Positions 7,676-57,413 of a stretch of 64,000 nt of DNA are shown one piece after another. The first letter of the stretch is position 1, and each line of letters begins with the position of its first letter. The DNA comes from Candidatus Tayloriibacteriota bacterium (lineage in GTDB: Bacteria > Patescibacteriota > Minisyncoccia > Phycocordibacterales > PALSA-1337): positions 127,410 to 191,409 of the forward strand of contig CAIOGI010000001.1 of assembly GCA_903857825.1 (NCBI GenBank), read 5' to 3'. The translations under genes and the position numbers were made by a program. The notes below the pieces were generated by a model that saw nothing but the letters and a program-made list of their open reading frames with translations, was not told the origin of the DNA and made no database searches.

Positions 7676-7714
7676 AAGGGGTACTATACAAGTATTACCC
7701 CTCGGGGGTTTTTT
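7676..7714 (+). terminator. intrinsic terminator
   Basis: The sequence aggggtactatacaagtattacccctcgggggtttttt forms a stem (AGGGGUA/UACCCCU) followed by U6. Confidence 0.5.
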
Positions 7715-8501: not shown

Positions 8502-8549
8502 AGTAATATCTGTATACCTCGTGCTTCTAGAGGGAATTGGATTAATCAT

Positions 8550-8646
8550 GTGAAATTGAGGTTTGACGCGGTGAGGAGGTCCTACTTTTTTGAGTTTACG
8601 AGAAAAAGAGGAGCCTCCGAGCGCAAGCAAGCAAACCCAATTTCAC
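8550..8646 (+). promoter_or_regulatory. structured intercistronic/leader RNA motif, copy A (nusG->rplK)
   Basis: Outer stem gtgaaattg/caatttcac. Conserved core gac-gcggtgaggagg ... ggagcctccgagcgcaag. The second stem gaggtttg/caaaccc. An internal U-run pairs an A-run. Same architecture as copies at 54330, 36355 and 37340-37487 on the minus strand. Confidence 0.5.
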
Positions 8647-8662: not shown

Positions 8663-9085
8663 ATGGCTAAAAAAATAATTAAAAAAGTAAAGGTTATCGC
8701 TCCCGCAGGGAAGGCGACTCCAGCTCCACCACTTGGACCTACTCTAGGACAGGCCGGTGTAAATATTGGTGATTTCACAAAGAAATTCAACGATGCTACA
8801 AAGACAATGATCGGCGACATGATCCCAGTAGTTATTACTGTATATGACGATCGTTCTTATGACTTTGTATTGAAGACCCCTCCAGCAAGCTCACTTATTC
8901 TAAAGGCAGTTGGTATAGAAAAGGGCTCAGGAAAACATGCTGTAAAGCGTGCAGGTACTATCACAAAGGCACAAGTTCGTGCTATTGCTGAAAGAAAAAT
9001 GCCAGACCTAAACGCTAGTGATATTGATGCTGCCATGAAGATTATCGAAGGTTCATGCAGATCAATGGGTGTGGATGTGAAATAA
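8663..9085 (+). CDS. rplK: 50S ribosomal protein L11
   Basis: [47 protein letters not shown]... matches the L11 N-terminal signature. Confidence 0.9.
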
Positions 9086-9146
9086 ATTAACAGAAAAAGA
9101 TTGTATTGTATCGCAGTGTCTGCTCTACAAAACAATCTTTTTCTTT

Positions 9147-9192
9147 TATCTCATCACCCTATACTCCAAAAACAGCACATCATCTGATAGTT
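9147..9192 (+). repeat. 46-nt direct repeat, left copy (duplicated 3' end of the DHFR-like gene)
   Basis: tatctcatcaccctatactccaaaaacagcacatcatctgatagtt is identical to 13366-13411 except for 1 nt. Confidence 0.7.
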
Positions 9193-9204
9193 TTTCTACA
9201 TTTG

Positions 9205-9239
9205 TATAATTTGTTGGGGGGGGGGTTCTGGTGTATAAT
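9205..9239 (+). promoter_or_regulatory. promoter-like region with a G10 homopolymer tract in the spacer (candidate phase-variation switch)
   Basis: tataat at 9205-9210; ttgttg at 9211-9216; G10 at 9216-9225; tataat at 9234-9239. TTGTTG-17-TATAAT has the G-run inside the spacer. The ATG of the downstream surface protein is at 9259. Confidence 0.35.
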
Positions 9240-9258
9240 GTTACTAATTCATATTTTT

Positions 9259-12200
9259 ATGATGAAACAATCCTTTATTAGCATTTACGAGAGAGTAAAA
9301 GCTTCCTCTAAGCTTATAAAAATATTTCTTTTTCTAACAATTTTTGTTGGGGGATTTTTGATGGTGGGGAGAGTGGAAGCAGCGACGTATTATGTAGATT
9401 CATCAATAACTGATTCAAATATTGGAAGTTCAACTCCAGATTGTACTAACTACGATCCAGTAGCTTTTGCTTGCAGCGGAGGAACAGCTTCTGCTTACAA
9501 AACTATCGCAGATATTAATCTAAAATCTTTCTCTCCTGATGATCAAATTTTGTTTCGTAAAGGACAAAGTTGGGCAGAAACACTAACCCCCGCTTCATCT
9601 GGTACTATTGGGCATCCTATTACTTTCGGAGCATATGGAACTGGTGCAAACCCATTGTTTAACAGAACTAACTCCAGAGGTATTGATATGCCGGCAAGGA
9701 ATGATATAACAATTCAAGATATAGACTTAACTAATACAGGTGCAGGGAGTGGGGGTGCAAATATATTTGGGTCTGGAGCCTGGTCACGAATTATCTTTCA
9801 GCGAATGACATTAAGTTCGGTTGGAGATTATAATATAATAAATTTTACTTACAATGTTGCCACGACCACGATTGATTCAGTTACTGCGATATCTACGGGA
9901 TCTAGATTTATTCGTTTAACTGGACCTGTAAATAATAACATAACTATTAGTAATAGTAGTGGATCAGGAGGAGATTCTAATGGAATAGAAATAAAAAATA
10001 CTTCAAATCTTATAATAAATCAAGTAACATATAGTAATTCTTCTAACATCGCTATTTATTTAAAAGACATTACTGGCACATTGTTTCTTTCCAATATATC
10101 TATATCTTCCCCGGCACTTCAATGTATTACGCTAGAAAATGTATCTGCCACACTAACTGCGGCTGGGCTAACTTGTACATCAGCGGGGAATGTGGGACTT
10201 TATATTTTAAACAGTGCCCTTGGTTTAGGTTCTACTATTTCAAATTCTACTATTTCAAATTCTGGTTCTGATGGAGTAAGAATTAATAGTTCATCAAATT
10301 TAACATTTATTTCAGTTACCTCTCAAACAACCAGAGGTCTTTCTGGTTTTTCAGCAACAGGTTCTTGGTCAAATATTAATTATACAAATTGTAGTGCAAT
10401 AGGTAATTCTTTTGATGGTTATATTTGGGCTGGAAGCGGTTCAAACTCAACTGTAACTAACTCTTTAGCTCAATCAAACTTGGTTGATGGATTTAGTATG
10501 ATAGAAGGTTCAACGGCACATGATGTTACTTGTAATTATTGTCTAGCAATTAGTAATGGGATTAAAACAGACACATCTAGTGGTGACGGTTTTACCTCTC
10601 ATGACGGAGTATATAATTTTAATATAAATAATTCAATTGCGATTAATAATACACAATCTGGTGTTGCATTTATAGCATCGTCATCAGGTACAGTTTATAA
10701 TTCTACATTTTATAATAATGGAGGAGCTTGGAGTTCTGAAGGAGGTGGTAAGGTGGATAGTGTTCGTGGAAATATATATCTTGGTACAAGCGCTATTAAT
10801 TCAGTTACAAACACTAACTGGATATTAAAAAATAATATTTCACAAGGGGGATATCCATTTGAGATCAGAACCAATACTCTAACAGATTATAATAGGCAGA
10901 TTTTTGACTATAATAGTTATTATCACCCAGCGAATAATAACTTCTTTACTTATGGAGCCTCACCAATATCATGGCTGACATACCATAATACCAATGAAGC
11001 TAACTCATCCTATGGAAATCCTTTATTTAGTAATGATGCGGGATCATATTCCACCTCAACAGACTTTCAACTTTTACCTTTATCCCCCGCCATCGACTCC
11101 GGCACCACCACTCCCAACATGACTTCTACCACTACCGACTTTGCCGGCAACCCCATCTACGGCACCCCAGACATAGGAGCATACGAATACCAACCACCAT
11201 ATACCATAACGACAGATAATCCAGAATACACAGGAAATGTAAGAATATATGGAGACGGTAAATACAGATACACAACATCAACAACTACATCAACCACAGC
11301 AAGTCTAAAAGTAACTCCGGCAGAAGGAATATACCCAACATACCAAGCATCTACCACAAGACCAGAATATTTAAATATAAGTAACATAACATGGGGAACT
11401 AGCAAACAATGGACAGCTTCATCTACGATAGCCACCACAACCGTATACACAATAGGAGATCTGACACCAAACACATATTACACAATATCAGTAGACGGTC
11501 TAGCATCTACAACATATCAATCTAACGGAAGTGGAGTAATCACATACACATACAGTGGAGGATATTCAACTCATACATTTACAGTAACTCCAGACACTAC
11601 CTCACCATCATCATTTGCTCTATCTACACCAGTAAATAATGCAAATGTTAGTAATCCACTAACTCTAGTGTGGAATGCAAGTACAGATACAGAATCAGGA
11701 ATATCAAAGTATCAGTTATATATTGATAACACTTTGAATACAGATAGCATATCATCTACCACAAATTCCATAACATTATCAAACCACCTATCATGTGGCA
11801 CTCATACATGGTATGTAATAGCTACAGATAATAATAGCAATACTACAAATTCAGATACATTAACATTTAGAATTCCTTGTCCTTCATCTAGTGGTGGCAC
11901 CGCCCAAAGTCGAGTAAACAATCTCCTAGCTATGGGTAACACAACATTAGCTAATCAAGTTGCTCAACAATACAATATAGTAATACCAAATCAAGTAGTT
12001 ACCCCGATGACGAATATAATTCCAACCTTCTCTAGATACCTACAACTTGGTCAAATAGGTAATGATGTTAAACAATTACAGATATTCTTAAACTCCAAAG
12101 GCTATATCATATCTTCTACAGGACCAGGATCAAAAGGAAATGAAACCACTATGTTCGGCTCTCTTACAAAGAAAGCCCTTATGAAATTCCAGAAGGATAA

Positions 12201-12264
12201 CAAGATACCGTCTACTGGATACTTTGGACCGATGACAAGAAAATTTGTTAATGAGGGGAGGTAA
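9259..12264 (+). CDS. secreted cell-surface protein: right-handed beta-helix repeats, Thr/Ser-rich Ig/FN3-like region, C-terminal peptidoglycan-binding domain
   Basis: ORF 9106..12264; the probable start is MMKQSFISIY... at 9259 (N-region + hydrophobic signal, AATYYVD after cleavage). It has NxS/T-rich beta-helix coils (NSSGSGGDSNGIEIKNTSNLIINQVTYSNSS...). The C-terminus QLGQIGNDVKQLQIFLNSKGY...FGSLTKKALMKFQKDNKIPSTGYFGPMTRKFV matches the PG_binding_1 fold. Confidence 0.6.
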   Translation: MMKQSFISIYERVKASSKLIKIFLFLTIFVGGFLMVGRVEAATYYVDSSITDSNIGSSTPDCTNYDPVAFACSGGTASAYKTIADINLKSFSPDDQILFRKGQSWAETLTPASSGTIGHPITFGAYGTGANPLFNRTNSRGIDMPARNDITIQDIDLTNTGAGSGGANIFGSGAWSRIIFQRMTLSSVGDYNIINFTYNVATTTIDSVTAISTGSRFIRLTGPVNNNITISNSSGSGGDSNGIEIKNTSNLIINQVTYSNSSNIAIYLKDITGTLFLSNISISSPALQCITLENVSATLTAAGLTCTSAGNVGLYILNSALGLGSTISNSTISNSGSDGVRINSSSNLTFISVTSQTTRGLSGFSATGSWSNINYTNCSAIGNSFDGYIWAGSGSNSTVTNSLAQSNLVDGFSMIEGSTAHDVTCNYCLAISNGIKTDTSSGDGFTSHDGVYNFNINNSIAINNTQSGVAFIASSSGTVYNSTFYNNGGAWSSEGGGKVDSVRGNIYLGTSAINSVTNTNWILKNNISQGGYPFEIRTNTLTDYNRQIFDYNSYYHPANNNFFTYGASPISWLTYHNTNEANSSYGNPLFSNDAGSYSTSTDFQLLPLSPAIDSGTTTPNMTSTTTDFAGNPIYGTPDIGAYEYQPPYTITTDNPEYTGNVRIYGDGKYRYTTSTTTSTTASLKVTPAEGIYPTYQASTTRPEYLNISNITWGTSKQWTASSTIATTTVYTIGDLTPNTYYTISVDGLASTTYQSNGSGVITYTYSGGYSTHTFTVTPDTTSPSSFALSTPVNNANVSNPLTLVWNASTDTESGISKYQLYIDNTLNTDSISSTTNSITLSNHLSCGTHTWYVIATDNNSNTTNSDTLTFRIPCPSSSGGTAQSRVNNLLAMGNTTLANQVAQQYNIVIPNQVVTPMTNIIPTFSRYLQLGQIGNDVKQLQIFLNSKGYIISSTGPGSKGNETTMFGSLTKKALMKFQKDNKIPSTGYFGPMTRKFVNEGR

Positions 12265-12292: not shown

Positions 12293-13348
12293 ATGGAACT
12301 TCACATGGAAATTGGGAGGGGTATAATTGTTTTAATGGATAATCATCAAAAATCACAAATAGTCATATATAAAGCTGAAAATGGCGATACAAAAATCGAT
12401 GTGAGATTCGATGGTGATACCGTGTGGCTTACACAGAATAACCTTGCGGAGTTATTCCAGACTACAAAGCAAAATATAAATCTTCATGCGCAGAATATCT
12501 TTGAGGAAGGAGAATTAATTAAAAATCGAACTGTCAAGGATTTCTTGACAGTTCAAAAAGAGGGAACTAGAGCCATTTCAAGAGATGTTGAATACTATAA
12601 TCTAGATTTGATCATTTCTATAGGATATCGTGTAAAAAGCTCTATAGCCACAGCCTTTCGCCAATGGGCAACAGCTAGACTTAGTGAGTATATAGTAAAA
12701 GGTTTTGTGCTTGATGATGAAAGATTAAAAAATCCAGATTTACCTTTTGATTATTTTGAAGAACTGGAAAGGCGTATTTCTGATATTCGTACTTCCGAAA
12801 AGAGGTTTTATAGAAAAATAACTGACATTTACGCGACAAGTGTTGATTATGATCCCTCAGACGAAAGAAGCATTCTCTTTTTTAAGACAGTTCAAAATAA
12901 AGTTCATTATGCTATCACAGGACAAACAGCTGCAGAAATAGTAGCAAGTAGGGTAGATAGTAAGAAAAGAAATATGGGTCTAACAAATTTTAGAGGATCT
13001 AAACCAACAAAAGAAGAGACATTAATTGCAAAGAATTATTTGAGTGAACAGGAACTGCTGGTATTGAACAATCTTGTAGAGCAGTATTTAGTATTTGCCC
13101 AAGGTCAGGCAATGCAGAGAATTCCAATGTACATGGATGACTGGATAGACAGACTGCATGGTTTCTTGAAGATAAATAGAAAGAAGATCTTGGAAGATGC
13201 TGGTAAAATATCGCATGAATTGGCAGAAGAGATTGCTCTAAAAAATTATGATGAATATAAGAAAATTGAGGCAAGAAAGGGGTCAGACGATGACTTTGAT
13301 AGGGAAGTAAATAAAGTATTGGAAACAAAAAAGAAGGGTAAAAAATAG
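12293..13348 (+). CDS. RhuM-family protein (Fic/Doc-related, mobile-element associated)
   Basis: N-terminus ...QIVIYKAENGDTKIDVRFDGDTVWLTQNNLAELFQTTKQNINLHAQNIFEEGEL is the characteristic RhuM N-terminal block. Confidence 0.55.
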   Translation: MELHMEIGRGIIVLMDNHQKSQIVIYKAENGDTKIDVRFDGDTVWLTQNNLAELFQTTKQNINLHAQNIFEEGELIKNRTVKDFLTVQKEGTRAISRDVEYYNLDLIISIGYRVKSSIATAFRQWATARLSEYIVKGFVLDDERLKNPDLPFDYFEELERRISDIRTSEKRFYRKITDIYATSVDYDPSDERSILFFKTVQNKVHYAITGQTAAEIVASRVDSKKRNMGLTNFRGSKPTKEETLIAKNYLSEQELLVLNNLVEQYLVFAQGQAMQRIPMYMDDWIDRLHGFLKINRKKILEDAGKISHELAEEIALKNYDEYKKIEARKGSDDDFDREVNKVLETKKKGKK

Positions 13349-14926: not shown

Positions 14927-14998
14927 TTAAATATTATACACTGTTATTTCTAAATAAAAAAACTAGCCCGAAGGCTAGAGTTTGATTGATCTTGAGAG

Positions 14999-20448: not shown

Positions 20449-20970
20449 TTACTCATTAAATCCAATTCTTACAGCTGATGGAAGCATTTCCTTTTTTGGC
20501 TCACTAAGCAGTTTCTTTATCGCCTTGAATATAATTTGAAAGTTTTCACCGTATTCCTTTTCCATTTTTTCAATTTTATTACGTATCTCGGAATTAGAGG
20601 ACATAATCTCTCTTAATTTTACAAATGTTCTCATGATTTGAATGTTAACATGTATTGCTCTGGTACTATTCAATATACCAGAAAGCATAGCAATTCCTTG
20701 TTCAGTAAAGACATAAGGGGTATGACCACCTAAATATTTTCTAGATGGTATCACATTTTGTGATACCATGGTGTCAATTTCGTCTTCATTTAGTTTGAAC
20801 ATAAAGTCATCTGGTAGACGCTCAATATTCCTTTTAATCTGTTGTCGTAGAACAATAGGCTTAACCTCGTAAAGCATTGCTATGTCTTTATCGAGTATAA
20901 CTTTTTTACCTCTTACAAACATGATTTTGCTTTGAATAATTTCCTCCGGAATAATTTCTTTATTTATCAT
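20449..20970 (-). CDS. ORF6N-domain protein (phage/mobile-element associated DNA-binding domain)
   Basis: ...IMFVRGKKVILDKDIAMLYEVKPIVLRQQIKRNIERLPDDFMFKLNEDEIDTM...YVFTEQGIAMLSGILNSTRAIHVNIQIMRTF is the ORF6N signature. Confidence 0.6.
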   Translation of the reverse strand: MINKEIIPEEIIQSKIMFVRGKKVILDKDIAMLYEVKPIVLRQQIKRNIERLPDDFMFKLNEDEIDTMVSQNVIPSRKYLGGHTPYVFTEQGIAMLSGILNSTRAIHVNIQIMRTFVKLREIMSSNSEIRNKIEKMEKEYGENFQIIFKAIKKLLSEPKKEMLPSAVRIGFNE

Positions 20971-22121: not shown

Positions 22122-25100
22122 ATGAACGAAGAACAAAAACCACAAGCCTCAGAGCAGGCGAAACAAACAAATCAGCCAACACAATCATCAAATCCACCCA
22201 TTCAAAAGTCCAAGATTTCTGAAACTGAGGAAAAGATTCTTGCATTCTGGGAAAAGAATGAGATTTTCAAAAAATCACTAGAAAAGCCATCACCAAAAGG
22301 GGAGTTCGTCTTTTATGATGGACCACCTTTCGCTACTGGAGAGCCACATTATGGTCACGTAGTTCCAGGTACCGTAAAGGACGTCATACCACGCTTCAAG
22401 ACCATGCAGGGATATCATGTGCCTCGTCGTTGGGGTTGGGATTGTCATGGCTTGCCAGTAGAAAATATTGTTGAGAAGGAACTCAAGCTCGCTTCAAAGA
22501 AAGACATCGTTGACTACGGTATTGGAAATTTCAATGCAAAGGCACAGGGCAGTGTGATGCGATATGCAGATGATTGGAGAAGAATAATTCCTCGTCTAGG
22601 AAGATGGGCGGATATGGATGATGATTATAGAACAATGGATGCTACTTACACTGAGTCAGTATGGTGGGCTTTTTCTGAACTCCACAAGAAGGGTTTGATA
22701 TACGAGGGATTCAAGTCAATGAATCTGTGTCCTCGTTGTGAGACCACACTTTCAAATTTCGAAGTGAGTCAGGGTTATAAAGACATAACAGATATTTCAG
22801 TTACTGTTGAATTTAAATTAAAAGGAGAGCAAAATATTTCTTTCCTTGCTTGGACAACTACACCTTGGACTTTGCCTGGGAATGTTGCTCTAGCTGTTAA
22901 TCCTAAGTTTGACTATGTAGAGATCGAGAAGAAAGATGAAGGCAAGGGAGAACTGGTCAGGTTTATTCTCGGAAAAGATAGATTGAAAAGCGTATTCAAA
23001 GATGATCAATATACTGTTGTCCGAGAAATGAAGGGCTCAGAACTCGTGGGCAAGTCATACGAGCCGGTTTTTGATTATTATTCAAATGACAAGAAACTCA
23101 AGAATATAGAAAATGGCTGGAAGGTCTATGAAGCTGATTTCGTAACCACGGAAGATGGTACTGGCATTGTTCATATTGCTCCTGCTTTTGGTGGAGATGA
23201 TTACGAACTTTCCTTAAAGCACAACTTACCTTTCATACAACATGTTGGCACAAACGGTAAATTCAAAAGTGAGGTTAAGGATTTTGCAGGACAAGATGTA
23301 AAGCCAATAGATACAAAGGAAGAGAAAGACGCACATCAAAAGGCTGATATTGAAATCATTAAGCACCTTGCTCATAATGGAAGTCTTTTTGCGAAAGAGA
23401 AACTTATACACTCATATCCACATTGTTGGAGATGCAATACTCCGCTGTTAAATTATGCTGCATCGTCTTGGTTTGTGAAGGTAACTGCTTTACGCGACAA
23501 GCTTGTGAAGGAAAACAAGAAAGTAAAATGGATTCCAGAGGAAATCGGAGAGGGAAGATTTGGTAATTGGCTTCTCGGAGCTCGAGATTGGGCTATTTCA
23601 CGTTCAAGATTCTGGGGTGCACCACTACCAGTATGGAGAGATGAAAAGACAGAGGAAATAAAGGTCCTTTCATCGGTTGAAGATTTAAAGAAATATAGTA
23701 GACCAAAAAACACATACTTTGTATGTCGTCATGGAGAAGCGGACAATAACACAAAGTCCATCATAAGTTCTCTTGCTACAAACCCACATCATCTTTCTGA
23801 AAAGGGTAAGGTTCAAGCGGCCGAAGCTGGAAAGTGGCTTCACGACAAGAAAATTGACCTTATTATCTCTTCACCTTTCTTGCGAACCAGAGAAACTGCA
23901 GAAATAATTGCTAATAAAATAGGTTACGATGTAAAGAAAATAATTTTCGAAAATAAAATTGGTGAAATAAATGCGGGGGTTTGGAATAATAAATCACTCG
24001 ACGACTTTATTGTTTTTTTCAAGGGTCAGGATAGATTCGTGGCGACTCCAGAAGGGGGAGAGAATTATGTGGACATAAAGAAAAGAGTTGGTGACTTTAT
24101 CTATGCTCTTGAAAACAAGTATAAGGACAAGAAAATTTTGATTGTCACTCACGATACTCCAATGCTCCTGCTAAAGACAGTTGCGCTAGGACTAAACAGG
24201 GAAGAGTCAAATAAATTACACAAAATGCATCAGGATGAAAAGCATTATAATAGCAATGCAAAGCCTTTTAGTCTTGATTTTCATCCATTACCTCACAATG
24301 CTGAATACGAATTAGACTTACACCGACCTTTCATTGATGATATAGAACTAACTTCTGAAAAGGGGAATAGATTAAAAAGAATTCCAGAGGTGTTTGATTG
24401 TTGGTTCGAGTCCGGAGCTATGCCTTTTGGATCAAATCATTATCCATTTGATAAATGCAATTTCAATCCTAAGCCAGGTCCATTCAGCAAAATTCTTGGT
24501 AAGACAAAGGGATATCCCGCAGACTTTATCGCAGAAGGTCTGGATCAAACCCGTGGCTGGTTCTATTCTATGCTTGTCTTAGGCGTGGCATTGTTCGATA
24601 AGTCTCCATTCAAGAAAGTTGTTGTAAATGGCCTAGTCCTCGCAGAAGATGGTCAGAAAATGTCCAAGTCAAAGAAAAACTATCCTGATTTAATGTTAAT
24701 TGTTAATAAGTATGGCGCAGATGCTTTGAGATATTATCTCATGTCTTCACCAGTCGTACATGCGCAGGATTCCTGCTTTATAGAAAAAGGAGTTGATGAA
24801 GTTGTGAAGAAGCATATTGGTCGCCTAAACAATGTCGTCACATTCTACGAAATGTATGCTACTGCCCCTGTAAAAGACGTGGCAAGTACAAATGTATTAG
24901 ATATTTGGATAATGACTAGACTTGCAGAACTTACGAAAGAAGTTACAGAAAATCTCGAGAAATATGAAATCGATAGAGCAGTCAGACCTTTTGCTGATTT
25001 TATCGACGATCTTTCTACTTGGTATTTGCGACGATCTCGAGATCGTTTCAAGGGTGATAATGAAAAGGACAAAGAGATGGCCTTGGCTACGACTCGTAAT

Positions 25101-25721
25101 GTTATTCTTGGCTTGGTGAAACTTCTCGCACCATTTATGCCTTTTGTTGCAGACGATATTTATCTAAGGGTGAAGGATAAAGAAAATCTACTGAAGGAGA
25201 GTGTTCACTTAGAGTCATGGCCTGAGGTAAAGAAATTTGATTCAAAGATAATTGAGTCAATGTCTGAAGTTAGAAAGGTTGCGTCTCTTGGTCTAGAAGC
25301 TAGAATGAAAGCGAAGATAAATGTGCGCCAACCTTTAGCTAGAATAAGTGTCGAGTCTATTTTGCCTGCAGAATTTTTTGATCTTATAAAAGATGAAGTG
25401 AATGTAAAAGAAATAGTTTCTGATCATACCCTTGCGGGGCAGGTGGCTCTCGATCTCGTTATTACTCCAGAGTTAAAAGAGGAAGGAACTATTCGTGAGC
25501 TGATACGAGCTGTTCAGGATTTGAGAAAGGAAAGAGGTTTGACTATACAAGATCGTGTCGTCTTAACTGTTGATACCGAAAAGACATTTGCTGATTTAAT
25601 TGAAAAAAATAAAAACACTATTTCTAGTGCTACGCTTTTGAAAGATATTGTTTTTGGAAAGTTGGGAGGTGAAGCTGTAAATATCGGGGATATGATGGTG
25701 AAGATAGAGGTGGGGAGGTAG
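22122..25721 (+). CDS. ileS: isoleucyl-tRNA synthetase carrying an inserted histidine phosphatase (PGM-family) domain
   Basis: HIGH motif PHYGHV; the HCWRC region; ISRSRFWGAPLPVW; DCWFESG; KMSKSKKN; C-terminal anticodon-binding region. Between ISRSRFWG and DCWFESG there is a ~180-aa block with RHGE (CRHGEADNN), SSPFLRTRETAEII, and IVTHDTPM. Confidence 0.9.
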   Translation: MNEEQKPQASEQAKQTNQPTQSSNPPIQKSKISETEEKILAFWEKNEIFKKSLEKPSPKGEFVFYDGPPFATGEPHYGHVVPGTVKDVIPRFKTMQGYHVPRRWGWDCHGLPVENIVEKELKLASKKDIVDYGIGNFNAKAQGSVMRYADDWRRIIPRLGRWADMDDDYRTMDATYTESVWWAFSELHKKGLIYEGFKSMNLCPRCETTLSNFEVSQGYKDITDISVTVEFKLKGEQNISFLAWTTTPWTLPGNVALAVNPKFDYVEIEKKDEGKGELVRFILGKDRLKSVFKDDQYTVVREMKGSELVGKSYEPVFDYYSNDKKLKNIENGWKVYEADFVTTEDGTGIVHIAPAFGGDDYELSLKHNLPFIQHVGTNGKFKSEVKDFAGQDVKPIDTKEEKDAHQKADIEIIKHLAHNGSLFAKEKLIHSYPHCWRCNTPLLNYAASSWFVKVTALRDKLVKENKKVKWIPEEIGEGRFGNWLLGARDWAISRSRFWGAPLPVWRDEKTEEIKVLSSVEDLKKYSRPKNTYFVCRHGEADNNTKSIISSLATNPHHLSEKGKVQAAEAGKWLHDKKIDLIISSPFLRTRETAEIIANKIGYDVKKIIFENKIGEINAGVWNNKSLDDFIVFFKGQDRFVATPEGGENYVDIKKRVGDFIYALENKYKDKKILIVTHDTPMLLLKTVALGLNREESNKLHKMHQDEKHYNSNAKPFSLDFHPLPHNAEYELDLHRPFIDDIELTSEKGNRLKRIPEVFDCWFESGAMPFGSNHYPFDKCNFNPKPGPFSKILGKTKGYPADFIAEGLDQTRGWFYSMLVLGVALFDKSPFKKVVVNGLVLAEDGQKMSKSKKNYPDLMLIVNKYGADALRYYLMSSPVVHAQDSCFIEKGVDEVVKKHIGRLNNVVTFYEMYATAPVKDVASTNVLDIWIMTRLAELTKEVTENLEKYEIDRAVRPFADFIDDLSTWYLRRSRDRFKGDNEKDKEMALATTRNVILGLVKLLAPFMPFVADDIYLRVKDKENLLKESVHLESWPEVKKFDSKIIESMSEVRKVASLGLEARMKAKINVRQPLARISVESILPAEFFDLIKDEVNVKEIVSDHTLAGQVALDLVITPELKEEGTIRELIRAVQDLRKERGLTIQDRVVLTVDTEKTFADLIEKNKNTISSATLLKDIVFGKLGGEAVNIGDMMVKIEVGR
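23700..24300 (+). other. embedded histidine phosphatase (phosphoglycerate-mutase family) domain within ileS
   Basis: NTYFVCRHGEADNN...LSEKGKVQAAEAGKWLHDKKIDLIISSPFLRTRETAEIIANKIGYDV...ATPEGGENYVDIKKRVGDFIYAL...ILIVTHDTPMLLL aligns block-for-block with the RHG / second-His signatures of GpmB/CobC-type phosphatases. Confidence 0.7.
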
Positions 25722-36324: not shown

Positions 36325-36354
36325 TTACAAAATTTAGATTCGACATGGTGATTC

Positions 36355-36455
36355 GTAAAATCGTGAGAGCCAACGGGGAGGAAGCCTTATTCTTTTCCTA
36401 GCTTGCGTAGAAAAGAAAAGGCCTTCCGACCGCAAGATTGGCGAACCGATTTTAC
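36355..36455 (+). promoter_or_regulatory. structured intercistronic/leader RNA motif, copy C (ssb->rpsR)
   Basis: Outer stem gtaaaatcg/cgattttac. Core gagagccaacggggaggaagcc ... ggccttccgaccgcaagattggcgaacc. An internal U-run pairs an A-run (ttcttttcc/gaaaagaaaa). Confidence 0.5.
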
Positions 36456-37339: not shown

Positions 37340-37487
37340 AGAAAATAGGCTCGCCAATCTTGCGGTCGGAAGCACTTTATTTTTTTAGCCAAGGCACTTG
37401 TTGTTTGATAAATCAAACAATGTCGCGCAAGCTAGAAAAAATAAAGTCTTCCTCCCCGTTGGCTCACACTATTTTCTACTCATACTA
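37340..37487 (-). promoter_or_regulatory. structured intercistronic/leader RNA motif, copy E (recA->efp), with enlarged apical insertion
   Basis: Minus strand: outer stem agaaaatag/ctattttct; core gtgagccaacggggaggaagac ... gcttccgaccgcaagattggcgagcc. A U-run/A-run is present. The apical region is extended by gcgcgacattgtttgatttatcaaacaacaagtgccttgg. Confidence 0.45.
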
Positions 37488-44630: not shown

Positions 44631-44633
44631 TTG

Positions 44634-45245
44634 ATGGATAAAAAAGAGATAAACATTTTTCTAAAAAGTTTTGAATTACAATATTCTAGAACACTAGTCA
44701 TTATTGATTTTGCAAATGTAGAAAAATGGAAAGATAATTTGGGTTGGAAAATTGGTATACAAGAACTTGCTAGACTTGTAAAAAACTTTACAAAAGGGGA
44801 TAAGAAATTACGAAGATTTTACTATGGTTCTGATTATGGACCCAATGATAAGTCAGATTATATGAATGACTGGTCATATAATATCCTTGAAAGGGCAAAA
44901 TCAAATGGATTTGAAGTAATAACCAAAAGGGTAAAATACATACACTCAACGCTGTCATTAAATGGGTTTATAAAAAAATGTGATCTCGATGTAGAAATGA
45001 CGGTTGATATACTGAGTATGAAAGATGCTTTTGATCAGATCTTAATATTTTCTGGAGATGGGGATATAACATATGCACTACAATATCTAAAAAATAGTTT
45101 CAATAAAAAGATCTATGTATTTGGAGCCAGGAATAGTATAGGAAGAGAAATAATTGATGCCCTTAACCAGGGGATAATTTGTAAGGTTATATACATTGAA
45201 GATTTCCAATACCGATTAAATATGGACAGATTCAGATATAAGTAA
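44634..45245 (+). CDS. NYN/LabA-like (PIN-fold) nuclease-domain protein, array paralog 1
   Basis: ORF 44631..45245 (TTG start in the track; ATG at 44634). Motifs IIDFANV..., CDLDVEMTVD, ILIFSGDGDITYALQYL and IYVFGARNS are the NYN signature blocks. Confidence 0.6.
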   Translation: MDKKEINIFLKSFELQYSRTLVIIDFANVEKWKDNLGWKIGIQELARLVKNFTKGDKKLRRFYYGSDYGPNDKSDYMNDWSYNILERAKSNGFEVITKRVKYIHSTLSLNGFIKKCDLDVEMTVDILSMKDAFDQILIFSGDGDITYALQYLKNSFNKKIYVFGARNSIGREIIDALNQGIICKVIYIEDFQYRLNMDRFRYK

Positions 45246-45360
45246 ATCAAAAATCTCCCCAAACGGGGAGATTTCGAATAAAATCCGGTGTAAGTTATTG
45301 CTTACTTTTACATAATATCATACGTCAAAATTTCATGCAAACAAAAAATTTAATATCTAT

Positions 45361-45420
45361 CCCTCTAACCAGGTTAAAACGTTGAACAAAATACCACTCG
45401 GAAACGGGTGGTTTTTTGTT
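45361..45420 (+). repeat. array repeat unit R2 (terminator-containing)
   Basis: ccctctaaccaggttaaaacgttgaacaaaataccactcggaaacgggtggttttttgtt. Preceded by aatttaatatctat, which is shared with copy R6. Confidence 0.75.
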
Positions 45421-45546
45421 TATATAATTTTATTTACTTTTCCCCAATCTTGTTTCGCAACTATGTTAAAAGACCATTTTCTTTAGAATATCTTAATAAC
45501 TGTTTGCTAGAGTGTTTGGATTATTGGAATAATTATTAAAGAGAAT
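45421..45546 (+). promoter_or_regulatory. array upstream leader type 2 (copy 1)
   Basis: tatataattttatttacttttccccaatcttgtttcgcaactatgttaaaagaccattttctttagaatatcttaataactgtttgctagagtg... It is shared with 47797-47920 and 49571-49691. Confidence 0.5.
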
Positions 45547-45957
45547 ATGATTATAAAAAGTTTTATCAAGGATTTTATTAAATGGTTATCAATCAAAAGA
45601 AAAATAGATGATTTTAAACATACCCCACCTTTATTTAATGAAGGTGAAATTTGGTGGTGTAGTATTGGTGAGAATGTGGGAGTAGAAATCAGTGGGAAAG
45701 GTGATCACTTTAGAAGACCTGTTCTTGTTGTAAGAAAACTTGATCAGTATTCATTTATAGGGGTACCCATCACTAGTCAAAATAAAGTAGGAACATGGTA
45801 TGCACATATAAAAGTTAAAAATAATGATAATTATGTTATATTATCCCAGATTAGACATATAGATTATAGGAGAATCGATAAAATCCTTTTTACTCTGGAT
45901 ATTTTGACATTTAATTATATTAGGACTGAAGTAGTAAATTTGATTAAGGGAGTATAA
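45547..45957 (+). CDS. MazF/PemK-like endoribonuclease toxin (no adjacent antitoxin ORF)
   Basis: GEIWWCSIGENVGVEISGKGDHFRRPVLVVRKLDQYSFIGVPITSQ matches the PemK/MazF pattern (G.I..........G.E..K.RP.LV......V..VP.TS). Confidence 0.55.
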   Translation: MIIKSFIKDFIKWLSIKRKIDDFKHTPPLFNEGEIWWCSIGENVGVEISGKGDHFRRPVLVVRKLDQYSFIGVPITSQNKVGTWYAHIKVKNNDNYVILSQIRHIDYRRIDKILFTLDILTFNYIRTEVVNLIKGV

Positions 45958-46039
45958 TAAATCACCCGTCTCCAAAGACGGGTGGACGTGGCTCATGCCA
46001 AATATGTATATATACTATCAGACACCAAAACTCTGTCAA

Positions 46040-46197
46040 GCAAAAATATATAATTTTGTTTACTTTTAACTTTTATATATAAATTCTATTTTTGAAGATA
46101 ATTCACATAATCGTGCCACTGTTATCCACAGATTCTTAAGAAGTAATAAATTTTTTGTAGTTCTAGCTCTTTACTTGAAATTCATAGTTGATAAAAT
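46040..46197 (+). promoter_or_regulatory. array upstream leader type 1 (diverged copy 2)
   Basis: ttttgtttacttttaacttttatatataaattctatttttgaagataattcacataatcgtgccactgttatccacagattcttaagaagtaataaattttttgtag... It contains TTTACT-16-TAAAAT. Confidence 0.45.
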
Positions 46198-46743
46198 ATG
46201 CGAATGAAGATGATTAAAACAGAAAACAATTTTGCATTTATAGATAGTCAGAATTTAAATCTTGGCATACAGAAGCTTGGTTGGAAATTGGACTATAAAA
46301 GATTTAGGATATACCTCAAAGAAAAATATCATGTAGAAAGAGCTTATATGTTTCTTGGTTTTGTATTGTTGAATCAAGATCTCTACGATAGATTACAAAA
46401 ATCTGGTTTTATACTTAAGTTTAAACCTACAATTCCAGATGCAAACGGTGAAATTAAAGGTAACGTTGATGCTGATATAGTTTTAAATACTTTGATTGAA
46501 TTAAGTGATTATGATAAGGCAGTTATAGTATCTAGCGATGGGGATTTTTATTCTCTAATATCGTATTTGTATGGTAAAGATAAATTAGAAATAGTACTGA
46601 GTCCAAATATAGATGAATGCTCAAGTCTTTTAAAACAGACAGCGAAAGAGAAAATCAATTTTATGAATGATTTGAAAGATAAACTTGAGTATAAAAGAAA
46701 AACACCGCTTAAGGACGAAACCTTAAGAAGTGCTTTTCTCTAA
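46198..46743 (+). CDS. NYN/LabA-like nuclease-domain protein, array paralog 2
   Basis: AFIDSQNLNLG, GNVDADIVLNTL, AVIVSSDGDFYSLISYL, and the C-terminal LEIVLSPNIDECSSLLKQ. Confidence 0.6.
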   Translation: MRMKMIKTENNFAFIDSQNLNLGIQKLGWKLDYKRFRIYLKEKYHVERAYMFLGFVLLNQDLYDRLQKSGFILKFKPTIPDANGEIKGNVDADIVLNTLIELSDYDKAVIVSSDGDFYSLISYLYGKDKLEIVLSPNIDECSSLLKQTAKEKINFMNDLKDKLEYKRKTPLKDETLRSAFL

Positions 46744-46785
46744 CGATACACCAATAGTGTAGCAGGTTATATATTCAGAAGTCAA

Positions 46786-46832
46786 GGTTAACGTTGAACA
46801 AAATACCACTCGGAAACGGGTGGTTTTTTGTT
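46786..46832 (+). repeat. array repeat unit R3 (5'-shortened, terminator intact)
   Basis: ggttaacgttgaacaaaataccactcggaaacgggtggttttttgtt. Confidence 0.7.
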
Positions 46833-46877
46833 GCTTGTACATCTTTTTGTTAAAATGATACAATATAATTATTAATT

Positions 46878-47432
46878 ATGAACACAAAAATAAATCAAAA
46901 ATTTACTACTGAGGAATTGATTCTATATATACTAAATAAATTAGAACCAGAGAAAAGTGATAAAATCCGCTTGAATAAACTAGCTTTTTTTGTTGAATTT
47001 GCTTTTTTTCATAGATTTAATCAATTACTTAGTAATGCAGAATATGCTGGTATTGATCTTGGTCCTGTAATTAATAATTATGATGATATTCTTAAAAATA
47101 TGCAGAAAATGGATCTTATTAGAATAGATGGTTATAAAATAAGGCCTTTAGTATCTCCATCCGTTACTCTCTCTTCAGAACAAAAGGTTTTTATTGATAA
47201 TATAATTGAACGATATTCAACATTATCAAAAGAAGTCCTGATAGGTATTTCTCATTTGACAGATGCTTATAAAATTACCACTAAAGATGAAAAGGTAATG
47301 GGTAATAAAATAGACAAAAGACTAGCCTTGCTTGAAACATTTCTATTGGATGATGAGACTGAAAACTTGGTTAATGAAGATGAATTACCAATTATAGATC
47401 GTTCAAAACTTGTTCCTTATGCCATTAGATAA
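46878..47432 (+). CDS. DUF4065 / Panacea-domain protein (SocA/PanA-like antitoxin candidate)
   Basis: TTEELILYILNKLEPEKSDKIRLNKLAFFVEFAFFHRFNQLL matches the Panacea/DUF4065 N-terminal helix pattern (..KLQKLLYFA..). It overlaps the downstream RelE-like ORF. Confidence 0.45.
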   Translation: MNTKINQKFTTEELILYILNKLEPEKSDKIRLNKLAFFVEFAFFHRFNQLLSNAEYAGIDLGPVINNYDDILKNMQKMDLIRIDGYKIRPLVSPSVTLSSEQKVFIDNIIERYSTLSKEVLIGISHLTDAYKITTKDEKVMGNKIDKRLALLETFLLDDETENLVNEDELPIIDRSKLVPYAIR

Positions 47433-47733
47433 TTCTTACAAAATCTTTTTTGAAAGAAGATTTCAAAAAATTCTAGATGGCTTGCCAGAAGATATTAGAG
47501 GTGCTTTTCAGGCAAAAATGAGTTATTTTCAAGGCAATCCAAATCATCCAAGTTTAAATACTAAAACATTAACAGTTAGTTCAAAAAGATTAAAAGAATT
47601 AGGCGTTGATCAAATATATGAATTTTATATAAATCGAAAAGATTACAGATGTATTTTTTACGTGATTCATGATACAAAAGAAATTATTATTGCATATATT
47701 GGTAATCACACACAAGTAAAAAATAAGTTTTAA
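47419..47733 (+). CDS. RelE/ParE-superfamily toxin-like protein
   Basis: ORF 47410..47733 (start at 47410 or 47419). The C-terminus QIYEFYINRKDYRCIFYVIHDTKEIIIAYIGNHTQ fits the RelE/YafQ-type beta-sheet pattern. Confidence 0.5.
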   Translation: MPLDNSYKIFFERRFQKILDGLPEDIRGAFQAKMSYFQGNPNHPSLNTKTLTVSSKRLKELGVDQIYEFYINRKDYRCIFYVIHDTKEIIIAYIGNHTQVKNKF

Positions 47734-47736
47734 TTC

Positions 47737-47796
47737 CCCCCCTCAACAGGTTAAAACGTTGAACAAAACACCACTCGGAAACGGGTGGTTTTTTGT
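47737..47796 (+). repeat. array repeat unit R4
   Basis: cccctcaacaggttaaaacgttgaacaaaacaccactcggaaacgggtggttttttgtt. Confidence 0.75.
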
Positions 47797-47920
47797 TTAT
47801 ATAATTTTATTTACTTTTCCCCAATCTTGTTTCGCAAATATGTAAAAAGACCATTTTCTTTATATTTTCTTAATAACTGTTTGCTAGAGTGTCAAAATTA
47901 TTAAGATAATAAGAAAAAAT
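47797..47920 (+). promoter_or_regulatory. array upstream leader type 2 (copy 2)
   Basis: tatataattttatttacttttccccaatcttgtttcgcaaatatgtaaaaagaccattttctttatattttcttaataactgtttgctagagtgtcaaaattattaagataataagaaaaaat. Confidence 0.5.
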
Positions 47921-48499
47921 ATGTTAGAGAAAATACAAACAGAAGTAAATTATGCATTTATTGATAGCCAAAATCTAAATCTAGGCGTTAGAGATCAGGG
48001 CTGGACTTTAGATTTTAAGAGATTTCACTTGTATCTCAAGGATAAATTTCATGTAGAAAAAGCCTTTCTATTTATTGGTTACTTTCCTGGAAATGAAAAA
48101 CTGTATACATCTTTGCAGAGTCATGGATATATATGTGTATTTAAACCGTCAATGTTATTACCAGATAAAAAAGTAAAAGGTAATGTTGACGCAGAATTGG
48201 TTTTGCATACAATGATTCAATTTAATGCATTTAGTAAAGCAATTATTGTGACAGGCGATGGTGATTTTTACTGTTTGATCGAATATTTACTTAGCTAACA
48301 AAAGTTTAAAAAAGTGCTTATACCTAATAAGAATAGGTATTCCGGATTATTGAAAAAATTAAGTACCCAAGATAACAATATTCTTGATTTCATCACAGAT
48401 AAAAAAGCAAAATTACAATATGTTTCGGTCTCGATTGAGGCGGATAATGAAAAAGGCTCTCAGTGGGACGTAACCCAAAAAGAACCTCTTTCATCGTGA
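47921..48499 (+). pseudogene. NYN/LabA-like paralog 3 interrupted by a single in-frame TAA (48296-48298)
   Basis: ORFs 47921..48298 and 48314..48499 are in the same frame. The upstream part (AFIDSQNLNLG...GNVDAELVL...IIVTGDGDFYCLIEYLLS*) and the downstream part (QKFKKVLIPNKNRYSGLLKKLSTQ...) align colinearly with paralog 2 (ISYLYGKDKLEIVLSPNIDECSSLLKQ). Confidence 0.5.
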
Positions 48500-48585
48500 T
48501 GTATAAATCGTATCATAAGGCGATATTTGATGCAATAGATGCGGTTACTTTAGCGGACTTTTTAGTGTTCCTCCATACCTATTAG

Positions 48586-48633
48586 CCTAAAACGTTGAAC
48601 AAAACACCACTCGGAAACGGGTAGTTTTTTGTT
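48586..48633 (+). repeat. array repeat unit R5 (terminator stem weakened: gggtag instead of gggtgg)
   Basis: cctaaaacgttgaacaaaacaccactcggaaacgggtagttttttgtt. Confidence 0.7.
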
Positions 48634-48792
48634 TATATAATTTATTTACTTTTTAACTTATATATATTTGAATATTGTTTTCTGCAAAAATCCATATAAT
48701 CATGCAATATTTATCCACAGATTCTTAAGAAGTAATAAATTTTTTGTGATTTTTACTATTTACACAAAAATATCAATTGATAATATAGATGT
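48634..48792 (+). promoter_or_regulatory. array upstream leader type 1 (copy 3)
   Basis: Near-identical to 44474-44630 (...gaatattgttttctgcaaaaatccatataatcatgcaatatttatccacagattcttaagaagtaataaattttttgtgatttttactatttacacaaaaatatcaattgataatat). Confidence 0.5.
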
Positions 48793-49410
48793 ATGGAAGA
48801 AATCACGAAAAAGCGATATGCATTTATTGATGTTCAGAATACTGAAGGTACTGTAAATCAGTTACTAGATTTTTCTATTGATTGGAGTAAAACATATCAA
48901 TATTTAAAAGAACATTGGAAGTGTAATGAGATCTTTTTCTATTCAGGAATTCAAAAGAGTAATGTCAATAAGATTAAAGAATATGAAAGTCTTTTGATGT
49001 TAGGTTATAAAATGAGAGTGAAAACATATTCAATATATAAGAATCAAGATACTATTGTTAAAATTAACTGTAATAAATGTAATAATGAGATAAGCCATAA
49101 AATCGATAATGGGACAAGATGGAAATCAAACTGTGACGTAGAGTTTTCTGTGGACGTAGAAAATAATATAAGAAATGGATCAGAATTCCTATTTTTTACT
49201 GGTGATGGTGATTTTGAATATCTAATTAGAGATGTGGTCAATAAAGGAATCAAGGTTTACATAATTTCAAGTGCAAAAAAGACATACATAAGCAATAGAT
49301 ATTATATTTCTCGTTTTTCAACAAAATTGAGGGATCTAATCGCTGAAAAAAGAGGAATGGTTGATTTCCTAGATATTAATGATTGGAAGAATAGAATTTA
49401 TCGAAGTTAA
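48793..49410 (+). CDS. NYN/LabA-like nuclease-domain protein, array paralog 4 (with Cys-rich insert)
   Basis: YAFIDVQNTEG, NCDVEFSVDVEN, FLFFTGDGDFEYLIRDV, and an inserted INCNKCNNEISHKIDNGTRWKSNCD (CxxC...C) segment. Confidence 0.55.
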   Translation: MEEITKKRYAFIDVQNTEGTVNQLLDFSIDWSKTYQYLKEHWKCNEIFFYSGIQKSNVNKIKEYESLLMLGYKMRVKTYSIYKNQDTIVKINCNKCNNEISHKIDNGTRWKSNCDVEFSVDVENNIRNGSEFLFFTGDGDFEYLIRDVVNKGIKVYIISSAKKTYISNRYYISRFSTKLRDLIAEKRGMVDFLDINDWKNRIYRS

Positions 49411-49423
49411 TAAATAGATAAAG

Positions 49424-49448
49424 GAAAACGCCATACAGGCTGGCGTTT
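49424..49448 (+). terminator. intrinsic terminator
   Basis: aacgccatacaggctggcgttttc forms a stem aacgcca/tggcgtt followed by a U-run. Confidence 0.5.
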
Positions 49449-49510
49449 TCTAATGATTCTATTAGTTTATCAGATATATCCATGCTGTCAAGACAAATTT
49501 AATATCTATC

Positions 49511-49570
49511 CCTCTAACCAGGTTAAAAAGTTGAACAAAACACCACTCGGAAACGGGTGGTTTTTTGTTT
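49511..49570 (+). repeat. array repeat unit R6
   Basis: ccctctaaccaggttaaaaagttgaacaaaacaccactcggaaacgggtggttttttgtt. Confidence 0.75.
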
Positions 49571-49691
49571 ATATAATTTTGTTTACTTTTCCCCAATCTT
49601 GTTTCGCAACTATGTAAAAAGACCATTTTCTTTATATTTTCTTAATAACTGTTTGTTAGAGTGTCAAAATTATTAAGATAATAAGAAAAAT
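49571..49691 (+). promoter_or_regulatory. array upstream leader type 2 (copy 3)
   Basis: tatataattttgtttacttttccccaatcttgtttcgcaactatgtaaaaagaccattttctttatattttcttaataactgtttgttagagtgtcaaaattattaagataataagaaaaat. Confidence 0.5.
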
Positions 49692-50306
49692 ATGGAAGAA
49701 GAAATATTAAAAGTAGAAAAAGACACTATGCAGATAGAAGAAAAGACCCGAATAAATATAGCCTATATTGACGCGACAAATTTAGATAAAGCATTAAGAA
49801 ATCAGCTGGGATGGAAAATTGATTATAAAAGATTTAGAGTGTGGCTTAAGGAAAAATATGATGTAAGGCGGGCATATATTTTTATCGGGCTTATCCCTAA
49901 GTACAAAGATCTTTATACTTTTCTTCAGTCGTGCGGCTTTGAATTAGAGTTTAAGGACGTAATATATGCAGGTGGAATAGCAAAGGGTAATTGTGATTCT
50001 GACTTGTTGATGAAAGCTAGTAGCGATTATTATATTGGAGGTTTAAACAAAGCAGTAATAGTTGCAAGTGATGGCGACTATGCTCCATTAGTTAAAGTCC
50101 TGCTTGGTGGTAATAGACTTGAGGTTATACTTTCTCCAAGCACTGTTGATAAATGTTCAATCCTTCTTAAAAGAACCAACGCACCGATTACATATATAAA
50201 TGATCAACGTTCAATACTCGAATTAAAGGATAATAGCGAGATATTGACCTCCTTAAATGAAAAAGCCCCCGATGTGGACAAAACCACATTAGGGTCTTCT
50301 TCGTAG
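49692..50306 (+). CDS. NYN/LabA-like nuclease-domain protein, array paralog 5
   Basis: IAYIDATNLDKAL, GNCDSDLLMKAS, AVIVASDGDYAPLVKVLL, and the C-terminal LEVILSPSTVDKCSILLKR. Confidence 0.55.
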   Translation: MEEEILKVEKDTMQIEEKTRINIAYIDATNLDKALRNQLGWKIDYKRFRVWLKEKYDVRRAYIFIGLIPKYKDLYTFLQSCGFELEFKDVIYAGGIAKGNCDSDLLMKASSDYYIGGLNKAVIVASDGDYAPLVKVLLGGNRLEVILSPSTVDKCSILLKRTNAPITYINDQRSILELKDNSEILTSLNEKAPDVDKTTLGSSS

Positions 50307-53599: not shown

Positions 53600-53837
53600 T
53601 GATATAGACAATATACATGATTATATAGATAACATATATAATCACATACGATATCACGTACGATATTGACCTATGTGTAATTATTATGCTAATGTTGTAT
53701 TTATAAGGCCAGAGACAGAAGGTATGGGTAAAACCCAATAATATCCTTCCGAGGTTTTCAACTCTCTTAGTTGGATAAAACCCTCTATATCCTTATGGTA
53801 AAGGTCGTAGATTATTAATATTTTTAGCTGAAAATAA

Positions 53838-54326: not shown

Positions 54327-54329
54327 TAA

Positions 54330-54436: not shown

Positions 54437-54492
54437 AGTCCAATTTTTCTAAACATTATTATAAAAATTATTAAATTAAATAAATTATTAAA

Positions 54493-57373: not shown

Positions 57374-57413
<40 letters not shown>

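Follow-up and report, generated by a model that had tools for sequence, protein, structure and literature searches.

ERIC repeats are imperfect palindromes of approximately 100-130 nt that lie in transcribed intergenic regions in either orientation. They are patchy at orthologous sites, are conserved far beyond usual selfish DNA, and have orientation-dependent effects on mRNA; we know of no report of an invariant asymmetric loop or an A4:U4 block in them. Correia hairpins are substrates of RNase III. The RNase III signals of phage T7 early mRNA are hairpins between consecutive genes of one transcript, and are fixed, orientation-specific and essential. REPINs are hairpins of approximately 100 nt in which compensatory changes are common and excisions are detectable (PMC3116915). 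REPs are found mostly downstream of open reading frames (ORFs), between unidirectional or convergent genes, and often in oppositely oriented pairs (PMC3733652). ERIC repeats are also mentioned in PMC2229807. The element described here is a hairpin of approximately 100 nt that is present four times in a 64,000-nt stretch of Candidatus Tayloriibacteriota bacterium DNA (contig CAIOGI010000001.1, positions 127,410 to 191,409 of the forward strand). This whole stretch is referred to as the window and is numbered from its first letter.

On balance, the four elements are probably copies of a lineage-specific, quasi-palindromic intergenic repeat family of approximately 100 nt, comparable to the REP/REPIN, ERIC and RUP repeats. 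This assignment was made because the element is multi-copy and intergenic, occurs in either orientation, has been flipped, lost or replaced by another subtype at given sites, leaves remnants, and is present as several coexisting subfamilies per genome. We conclude that it has no dedicated role in regulating translation genes. Within Rfam 15 and the literature searched, the element is a previously undescribed family of a known kind, the dispersed hairpin repeat.

The four copies, with flanking genes assigned by Pfam (nusG>rplK, ssb>rpsR, recA>efp and rplJ>rplL) and covariance model scores, were as follows.

8550-8646, forward strand: copy A, type II, between nusG and rplK; 82-83 bits, fold z = -6.8.
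36355-36455, forward strand: copy C, type I, between ssb and rpsR; 3' core at 36426-36436; 94-96 bits.
37340-37477, reverse strand: copy E, type I, between recA and efp; 3' core at 37359-37369; 84 bits with model R1, 75 bits with model R2.
54330-54436, forward strand: copy B, type II, between rplJ and rplL; 3' core at 54404-54414; approximately 88 bits.

A first-pass annotation of the window had listed the same four copies, the same gene pairs and the same shared architecture (an outer stem, a second stem, a hairpin joining a U-run to an A-run, and both cores), all of which were recovered. Its positions held for copies A, B and C; copy E, with its 5' end at 37477, had been drawn approximately 10 nt too long. 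Each copy was also said to end 15-50 nt before a start codon, which was correct for A (16 nt), C (31 nt) and E (19 nt), and not for B (56-60 nt).

The 3' core CCGASCGCAAG occurs four times in the 64 kb against 0.34 expected, and the element family accounts for approximately 0.6% of the window sequence. Minimum free energies of the four copies relative to shuffled sequences gave z-scores of -4.5 to -6.9. Covariance models were built from 15 copies (R1, alignment A2) and from 56 matches (R2, alignment A4). With filters off, the four copies were the sole matches in the 64 kb, at 75-96 bits overall. R1 scores were 83-94 bits, with copy E scoring 56 as a local match (filters off) and 84 at full length; R2 scores were 75-96 bits. 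The opposite strand of the window gave at most 27 bits with the covariance models.

Each element comprises a closing stem of 9-11 bp (P1), a second stem of 5-7 bp (P2), an asymmetric loop, and a long hairpin (P3). The P1-P2 joint contains a bulged A in type II (copies A and B), and a bulged U plus a CGAG/CGAG tandem G.A in type I (copies C and E). A second tandem G.A is present in the P1-P2 stem of copy C. The conserved junction reads 5'-(A)CGGKGA on one side and GASCGCAAG(W)-3' on the other. P3 is A/U-rich with a variable tip (GNRA-like, UACG-like and others), and in copy E the tip holds an additional hairpin of approximately 45 nt. The parts of copy A, all on the forward strand, were placed as follows.

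8550-8558 with 8638-8646: P1, followed by the bulged A8559.
8560-8565 with 8632-8637: P2.
C8569-G8570 opposite G8623-C-A-A-G8627: invariant loop.
G8571:C8622 and U8572.G8621: 2-bp helix.
G8573.A8620 and A8574.G8619: tandem G.A.
8575-8618: P3.

The fold was assessed on 45 distinct copies, drawn partly from the window and partly from related contigs. Paired cells amounted to 95.5%, and double changes were found in 23 of 27 pairs, so the compensatory stem changes claimed at first pass were borne out. The covariation score was 0.494, compared with 0.136 for shuffled and 0.05-0.07 for slid partners. The 2-bp helix beside P3 was supported, its first pair being G:C in 40 copies and U:A in 5, and its K:S pair being GC in 23, UG in 16, CG in 2 and UA in 2. 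In P1 the AAAA/UUUU pairs are essentially invariant (39-44 of the 45 copies) and adjacent pairs covary. A variant class was recognised, with members at L056:6262, L122:7398, L084:2666, L009:6388, L019:1680 and L147:10931 (numbers prefixed with L are our handles for related loci). Here the tandem G.A is swapped for C:G or other pairs, and 5'-CG and GCAAG-3' are kept; the truly invariant parts are therefore the CG/GCAAG asymmetric loop and the P1 AAAA/UUUU block.

Several structural readings of the junction were rejected. A kink-turn fits copy A only: the tandem G.A is flanked by Watson-Crick pairs with no bulge, the flanking K:S pair covaries, and the variant class has C:G/C:G in place of G.A/A.G. 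The P3 tips often bear CUUGCG, the complement of CGCAAG in the cores of other copies; an intramolecular pseudoknot between tip and core was rejected since 3 nt would have to span an approximately 18-bp stem, which is sterically implausible, and the tip is not conserved. The G:C plus K:S helix was preferred over a C-GCAA-G mini-hairpin (a three-way junction) because C->A accompanies G->U in the variant class. A self-cleaving ribozyme was rejected, with only approximately 7 invariant unpaired nucleotides and a replaceable tandem G.A. No conserved -35/-10 for an own or outward promoter was found in the element: P2 covaries, and candidate -10 boxes fall in variable flanks.

The same features bear on whether the element is a trans-acting small RNA, with sense copies released by cleavage at the base of P1 as a stable ribonucleoprotein (RNP) RNA of approximately 100 nt, like snoRNAs and small RNAs embedded in introns or untranslated regions, and with the loop and tandem G.A pairs serving as protein-binding sites. 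The closing stem does bring the 5' and 3' ends together, one or two tandem G.A motifs accompany the invariant loop, copy number is high beside highly expressed genes, and the CUUGCG tips could pair with the cores of other copies. This role is nevertheless distinctly unlikely: the element has no promoter of its own, copies are freely lost between close relatives, the tandem G.A gives way to C:G pairs in the variant class, and kink-turn geometry is absent.

Relatives of the element were collected by a pattern scan of 185,579 species genomes, which returned 113 loci. True members were 12 of these, all in AT-rich Patescibacteria metagenome-assembled genomes (MAGs); the remainder were chance matches in GC-rich coding DNA. 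A stricter pattern applied to metagenomes returned 29 loci, all 29 with copies confirmed by covariance model and several duplicating genome loci. Further copies within those loci were added with the covariance model, giving the 45 distinct sequences. The L12, EF-P, L11 and SmpB proteins of the hosts are 75-100% identical to those of the window. Source labels of the hosts were Patescibacteria group, Candidatus Taylorbacteria, Tayloriibacteriota and Paceibacterota. Some host MAGs bear the label 'Saccharibacteria', which was not accepted, as their L12 and SmpB share 75-90% identity with homologues from Taylorbacteria/Paceibacterota. The hosts appear to form one lineage, a Paceibacteria/Taylorbacteria-like branch of the ultra-small Patescibacteria (Candidate Phyla Radiation).

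A scan of the whole window against Rfam 15 at gathering thresholds matched 23S and 5S rRNA only, in agreement with the first-pass statement that the element is outside the Rfam ribosomal-protein leaders. A permissive Rfam scan around copy A gave chance matches only (E >= 0.2). Literature searches turned up no prior description of the element. No match was found in INPHARED phages or IMG/VR, and a phage or plasmid origin was rejected on this ground.

Each of the four window sites has an empty counterpart in close relatives, with a spacer of 20-55 nt. The comparisons at each site were as follows.

nusG-rplK spacer: 161 nt in the window, with copy A; empty, 55 nt, in L151/L152 (L11 95% identical).
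ssb-rpsR spacer: 162 nt in the window, with copy C; empty, 20-30 nt, in L149, L148 and the P0126 contig.
recA-efp spacer: 172 nt in the window, with copy E; empty in L147 (41 nt), L148 and L149 (20 nt each) and the P0126 contig (40 nt); no relative carries a copy.
rplJ-rplL spacer: 166 nt in the window, with copy B; empty, 33 nt, in L145/L146 (L12 90% identical).

Other relatives carry a different copy at the same site. The L150 nusG-rplK spacer (164 nt; L11 99% identical) holds an identically placed copy of the same subfamily on the other strand (82 bits), and copy A differs from it at four stem positions, all compensated. A 16-nt flank is common to the window and L150 and absent from the empty site, which points to inversion in place at nusG-rplK and not to an independent insertion. 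At rplJ-rplL, L143/L144 (spacer 185 nt) contain an orthologous type-II copy with compensated P2 and P3 changes, and L129 contains an antisense type-I copy. In the L143 copy two small hairpins (CACCACAGGGGTG and CTAGTAGTTTGCTAAAGCAAACTATG, at 9893-9932) are inserted exactly between GAG and CGCAAG of the 3' core; the junction thus tolerates added helices. Subtypes have been swapped at a single site between L009 and L142, and between copy C and L147. The P1, lower stem and flanks of the L147 ssb-rpsR copy are identical to those of copy C, and its interior is of the variant class.

Remnants of older copies were found beside two of the window copies, the one after copy B by a regular-expression scan.

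36327-36351, forward strand: what is left of the 5' part of a type-II copy (ACAAAATTTAGATTCGACATGGTGA), past the ssb stop codon and ahead of copy C.
54436-54449, forward strand: solo 3'-end remnant of an older type-II copy (GAGTCCAATTTTTC), directly 3' of copy B.

The ACAAAATTTAGATTCGACATGGTGA remnant resembles the 5' halves of type-II copies in L120, L113 and L143, and is missing in L147, whose element abuts the ssb stop codon. Copies in L019 and L014 are trailed by remnants like GAGTCCAATTTTTC, with three 3' remnants in tandem in L014.

A 35-nt stretch directly 3' of nusG (8502-8536; AGTAATATCTGTATACCTCGTGCTTCTAGAGG, containing a CCTC...GAGG hairpin) precedes copy A and is conserved at empty sites too, with counterparts at L150 2337-2371 and L151 2446-2478. 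It may be the actual nusG terminator or an rplK leader element.

The first-pass annotation had proposed a shared cis-regulatory leader (a riboswitch, protein-binding leader or standby site) coupling the expression of translation genes. All four window copies are indeed sense and 16-60 nt upstream of rplK, rplL, rpsR and efp. The empty sites, together with the inverted or antisense copies at nusG-rplK and rplJ-rplL in other relatives, make such a role very improbable. Elsewhere the downstream genes include murG, dnaA, trxB, adk, tRNAs and tmRNA, or there is no co-oriented gene, and no association with a single functional class of downstream genes was found. The homologous positions that were to be compared lack the element in close relatives. 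The genome also makes essentially no use of Shine-Dalgarno sequences: GGAG, GAGG or AGGA was found at -20 to -4 in 2 of 49 ATG-start genes of the window, against a 12% background, and pre-start spacers are pure A/T. Translation initiation in the source genome seems essentially independent of Shine-Dalgarno pairing. A sequestered Shine-Dalgarno or discontinuous ribosome-binding site was accordingly rejected, and the GGAGG-like tract that had been thought sequestered in the stem is moot, because the genome lacks Shine-Dalgarno use and the purine tract covaries away in the variant class.

Copies of the family lie at gene boundaries, usually 0-30 nt past a stop codon or 11-15 nt ahead of a tRNA or tmRNA gene. 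The distance from stop codon to element is approximately -4 to +30 nt family-wide, and several copies provide the stop codon themselves; copies B, C and E are inserted 6-30 nt past the upstream stop codon. In other genomes the element was found 3' of trxB, yidC, a murD-like gene, ddl, a hisS-like gene and smpB, ahead of murG, dnaA and rpsU, and near FtsZ, SNase, SecY and adk genes. Ahead of tmRNA, tRNA-Ala(UGC) and tRNA-Lys genes, where both orientations occur, the gap is 11-15 nt. Copies also sit between convergent genes, and many have no co-oriented downstream gene.

Within co-directional gene pairs, 14 copies were sense and 9 antisense (p = 0.40). Antisense copies are present within operons at rplJ-rplL (L129), secY-adk (L120) and ftsZ-trxB (L009 and L142), and score as high as sense copies with the covariance model. 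Inverted pairs of copies occur in L009, L019 and L117. Orientation set by replication direction (lagging-strand, IS200/IS605-like or attC-like) was rejected, since opposite orientations lie within 1 kb of each other (copies C and E; the L009, L019 and L117 pairs). An IS608-like fixed target tetranucleotide was rejected because 5' flanks are not conserved. An integron attC site was also rejected: the ends GTAAAAT...ATTTTAC have the wrong polarity relative to RYYYAAC...GTTRRRY (R''/R'), with one mismatch per box, and the neighbours are core housekeeping genes where a cassette array would be expected. Neither a DNA uptake sequence nor a double-stranded DNA operator would require compensated stems, and both were dismissed.

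Placement at gene ends could also point to a bidirectional intrinsic terminator or attenuator, in which the A4 and U4 blocks of P1 would act as A-tract and U-tract around the long hairpin. P1 is the same on either strand, its AAAA/UUUU block is as constant as described above with covarying neighbours, and many copies lie between convergent genes or right past stop codons. Termination is unlikely all the same. The U4(-6) run in the 3' strand of P1 is invariant but short, at 4-6 nt, with 2 more paired nucleotides outside it. The genome has ordinary terminators with a short GC hairpin and T-run (for example at 7697-7709 and 14963-14978), and a terminator scan called such canonical terminators and none of the elements. 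Sense copies lie inside the essential operons rplJ-rplL and ssb-rpsR, and the 20-33-nt spacers of empty relatives have no room for a promoter, so a strong stop to transcription at these points would do harm. Nor would a terminator account for the conserved asymmetric loop.

The main rival to a repeat is an RNA processing or stability role that benefits the host. The element would be a co-transcribed signal whose CG/GCAAG loop is read by a host RNase or RNA-binding protein, and cleavage would leave protective hairpins on flanking mRNAs and on tRNA and tmRNA precursors. In its favour, two helical segments of approximately 18-20 bp surround the invariant asymmetric loop, an arrangement resembling T7 RNase III sites. 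Copies always lie in transcribed spacers, near stop codons or 11-15 nt upstream of the 5' ends of tRNA-Ala, tRNA-Lys and tmRNA. The fold is strand-asymmetric, with 36 G.U against 13 A.C pairs, and the sense strand folds more stably in 44 of 46 copies. Invariant loops with variable stems, and orthologous copies that differ solely by compensated changes, likewise fit such a module. Set against it are the approximately 40% of copies in co-directional pairs that are antisense and equally intact, the dispensability of the element at all four window sites in close relatives, and the in-place inversion with unchanged flanks. We consider this role possible but doubtful. A hairpin for intercistronic processing or attenuation, the second of the first-pass candidate roles, is likewise conceivable.

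In the repeat interpretation that we favour, the element would spread and be homogenised as DNA. A trans-acting enzyme might mobilise the strand in its folded, single-stranded form, templated repair and gene conversion might act between arms or between copies, or both routes might operate. That copying or homogenising process probably recognises the conserved loop and the A4:T4 block. Once inserted, the element would be co-transcribed with its neighbours as a stable intercistronic or 3'-untranslated-region hairpin and tolerated, and may modestly alter mRNA ends or read-through. In quasipalindrome mutagenesis, arm recombination or template switching can invert an element and yield apparently compensatory changes. 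The present element is quasi-palindromic and could therefore be inverted by these routes, and conversion from other copies could exchange interiors, as between copy C and the L147 copy. The asymmetric loop, G.U pairs and bulges persist, which argues for selection of one particular folded strand. With moderate confidence, a copying enzyme acting on single-stranded DNA is favoured as the selecting agent over an RNA-binding or processing factor, because orientation relative to transcription is nearly random and the element is dispensable.

Several observations weigh against a mobile repeat. No transposase, HUH or reverse transcriptase domain was found in the 64-kb window or in neighbourhoods of approximately 20 kb in relatives. 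No clear target-site duplication was found among the copies, TA being present at both junctions in only approximately half of them; filled and empty sites at B and E are compatible with a TA or TAA duplication, which is not proof. The GTAG or CGTC tag of classical REPs is absent from the flanks and ends of the copies. Once ORF miscalls were corrected, sense and antisense copies numbered approximately 18:9, a mild sense excess. Loops that stay invariant while stems turn over, and orthologous copies that differ solely by compensated changes, fit selection for RNA function equally well.

A more specific proposal, which we put forward as speculative, is that the loop with its 2-bp helix and the A4:U4 stem form the recognition module of an undescribed Patescibacteria system. 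That system might be a new hairpin-specific mobilising enzyme, making the element a REPIN-like 'domesticated replicator' in ultra-small genomes. It might instead be a host protein that binds or processes RNA, with dozens of copies embedded in transcripts serving it as processing sites or as precursors of an RNP RNA of approximately 100 nt. Should there be a cognate enzyme or binding protein, the conserved loop offers a direct handle for finding it.

The family adds a well-defined dispersed hairpin repeat to Patescibacteria, whose genomes are thought to be highly streamlined. Because the elements lie inside essential operons (L10-L12, S6-SSB-S18 and spc) and ahead of tRNA and tmRNA genes, and differ between near-identical strains, they likely perturb transcript structure and should be useful strain markers. 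They also call for caution in the discovery of non-coding RNA: excellent covariation and a suggestive context in one genome were obtained here, yet the element is probably a mobile, invertible DNA palindrome. Compensated changes in such palindromes can be made by arm-to-arm templated repair or copy-to-copy conversion.

Other features of the window were recorded as follows.

8663-12264: rplK, followed by a 1052-aa beta-helix/peptidoglycan-binding protein instead of rplA.
12293-13348 and 20449-20970: a RhuM-family virulence protein and an ORF6N-domain protein (phage/antirepressor-like), amid nucleotide-metabolism genes.
22122-25721: isoleucyl-tRNA synthetase (1199 aa) with a His_Phos_1 (histidine-phosphatase) domain inserted at residues 533-700; the L147 and L149 orthologues share this insertion.
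44631-50306: a tandem run of five paralogues with the NYN domain (PF01936), predicted RNases; a PemK/MazF toxin (45547-45957) and a SocA/Panacea antitoxin (46878-47432) lie among them.
50804-54879: rplJ-rplL, 45 kb from rplK and behind an LCAT-like 931-aa gene.
56835-59717: 23S rRNA, with an expansion of approximately 45 nt near 57111-57153.
59824-60405 and 61318-61800: two LAGLIDADG endonuclease ORFs, in the 2.6-kb spacer between the 23S and 5S rRNA.
62312-62420: 5S rRNA.

The RhuM and ORF6N genes may be mobile or defence-related insertions. The 44631-50306 segment looks like a variable defence or toxin-antitoxin island; in syntenic relatives the position is taken by a single NYN gene or by different toxin-antitoxin genes (Fic, HigB). 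The window showed no L1 gene; the L11-L1-L10-L12 cluster is broken up and may lack L1. The 23S-LAGLIDADG-5S layout is also present in L145/L146. No 16S rRNA and no tRNA gene was found in the 64-kb window.

The element was finally set beside the known systems. Like the T7 RNase III hairpins, it is a repeated hairpin between genes (approximately 60-100 nt in T7) whose upper and lower stems are separated by an asymmetric internal loop; it differs in being dispersed, invertible and dispensable. With miniature inverted-repeat transposable elements (MITEs) of the RUP/Correia type it shares a non-coding, strongly structured form of approximately 100-150 nt, AT-rich or TA insertion near gene ends, co-transcription and strain variability (PMC3049150; PMC2229807). 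The presence/absence polymorphism at orthologous sites by which terminal-inverted-repeat MITEs are judged was likewise found. MITEs have conserved terminal inverted repeats matching a parent insertion sequence and a clear TA duplication, whereas the terminal stem of the element covaries, its constant part is the A4/T4 block only, and the junctions no more than suggest a TA duplication. As with ERIC repeats, the element is an imperfect palindrome in transcribed spacers, in either orientation and patchy at orthologous sites, but there is no sequence similarity between the two and the host lineage is different. Membership in REP/REPIN, ERIC or RUP/Correia is not shown by these likenesses. A REPIN is a doublet of two identical short palindromes, whereas the element is a single hairpin with conserved asymmetric loops. 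In place of a GTAG/CGTC tag, a subset of approximately 9 copies carries an unpaired 3' CTAG(AC) tail (YCTAGAC). No RAYT (Y1/HUH) gene was found in the window or in the fetched neighbourhoods of relatives, and the hosts are Patescibacteria, for which the literature searched describes no such repeats. In common with the RAYT-mobilised REP/REPIN repeats, the element forms multi-copy intergenic hairpins of approximately 100 nt that occur in both orientations and as inverted pairs (PMC3116915; PMC3733652), mostly just 3' of ORFs and between unidirectional or convergent genes. Several subfamilies per genome, frequent compensatory changes in the hairpin arms, excision and presence/absence polymorphism, and restriction to a lineage in which the repeats persist are also shared by both.

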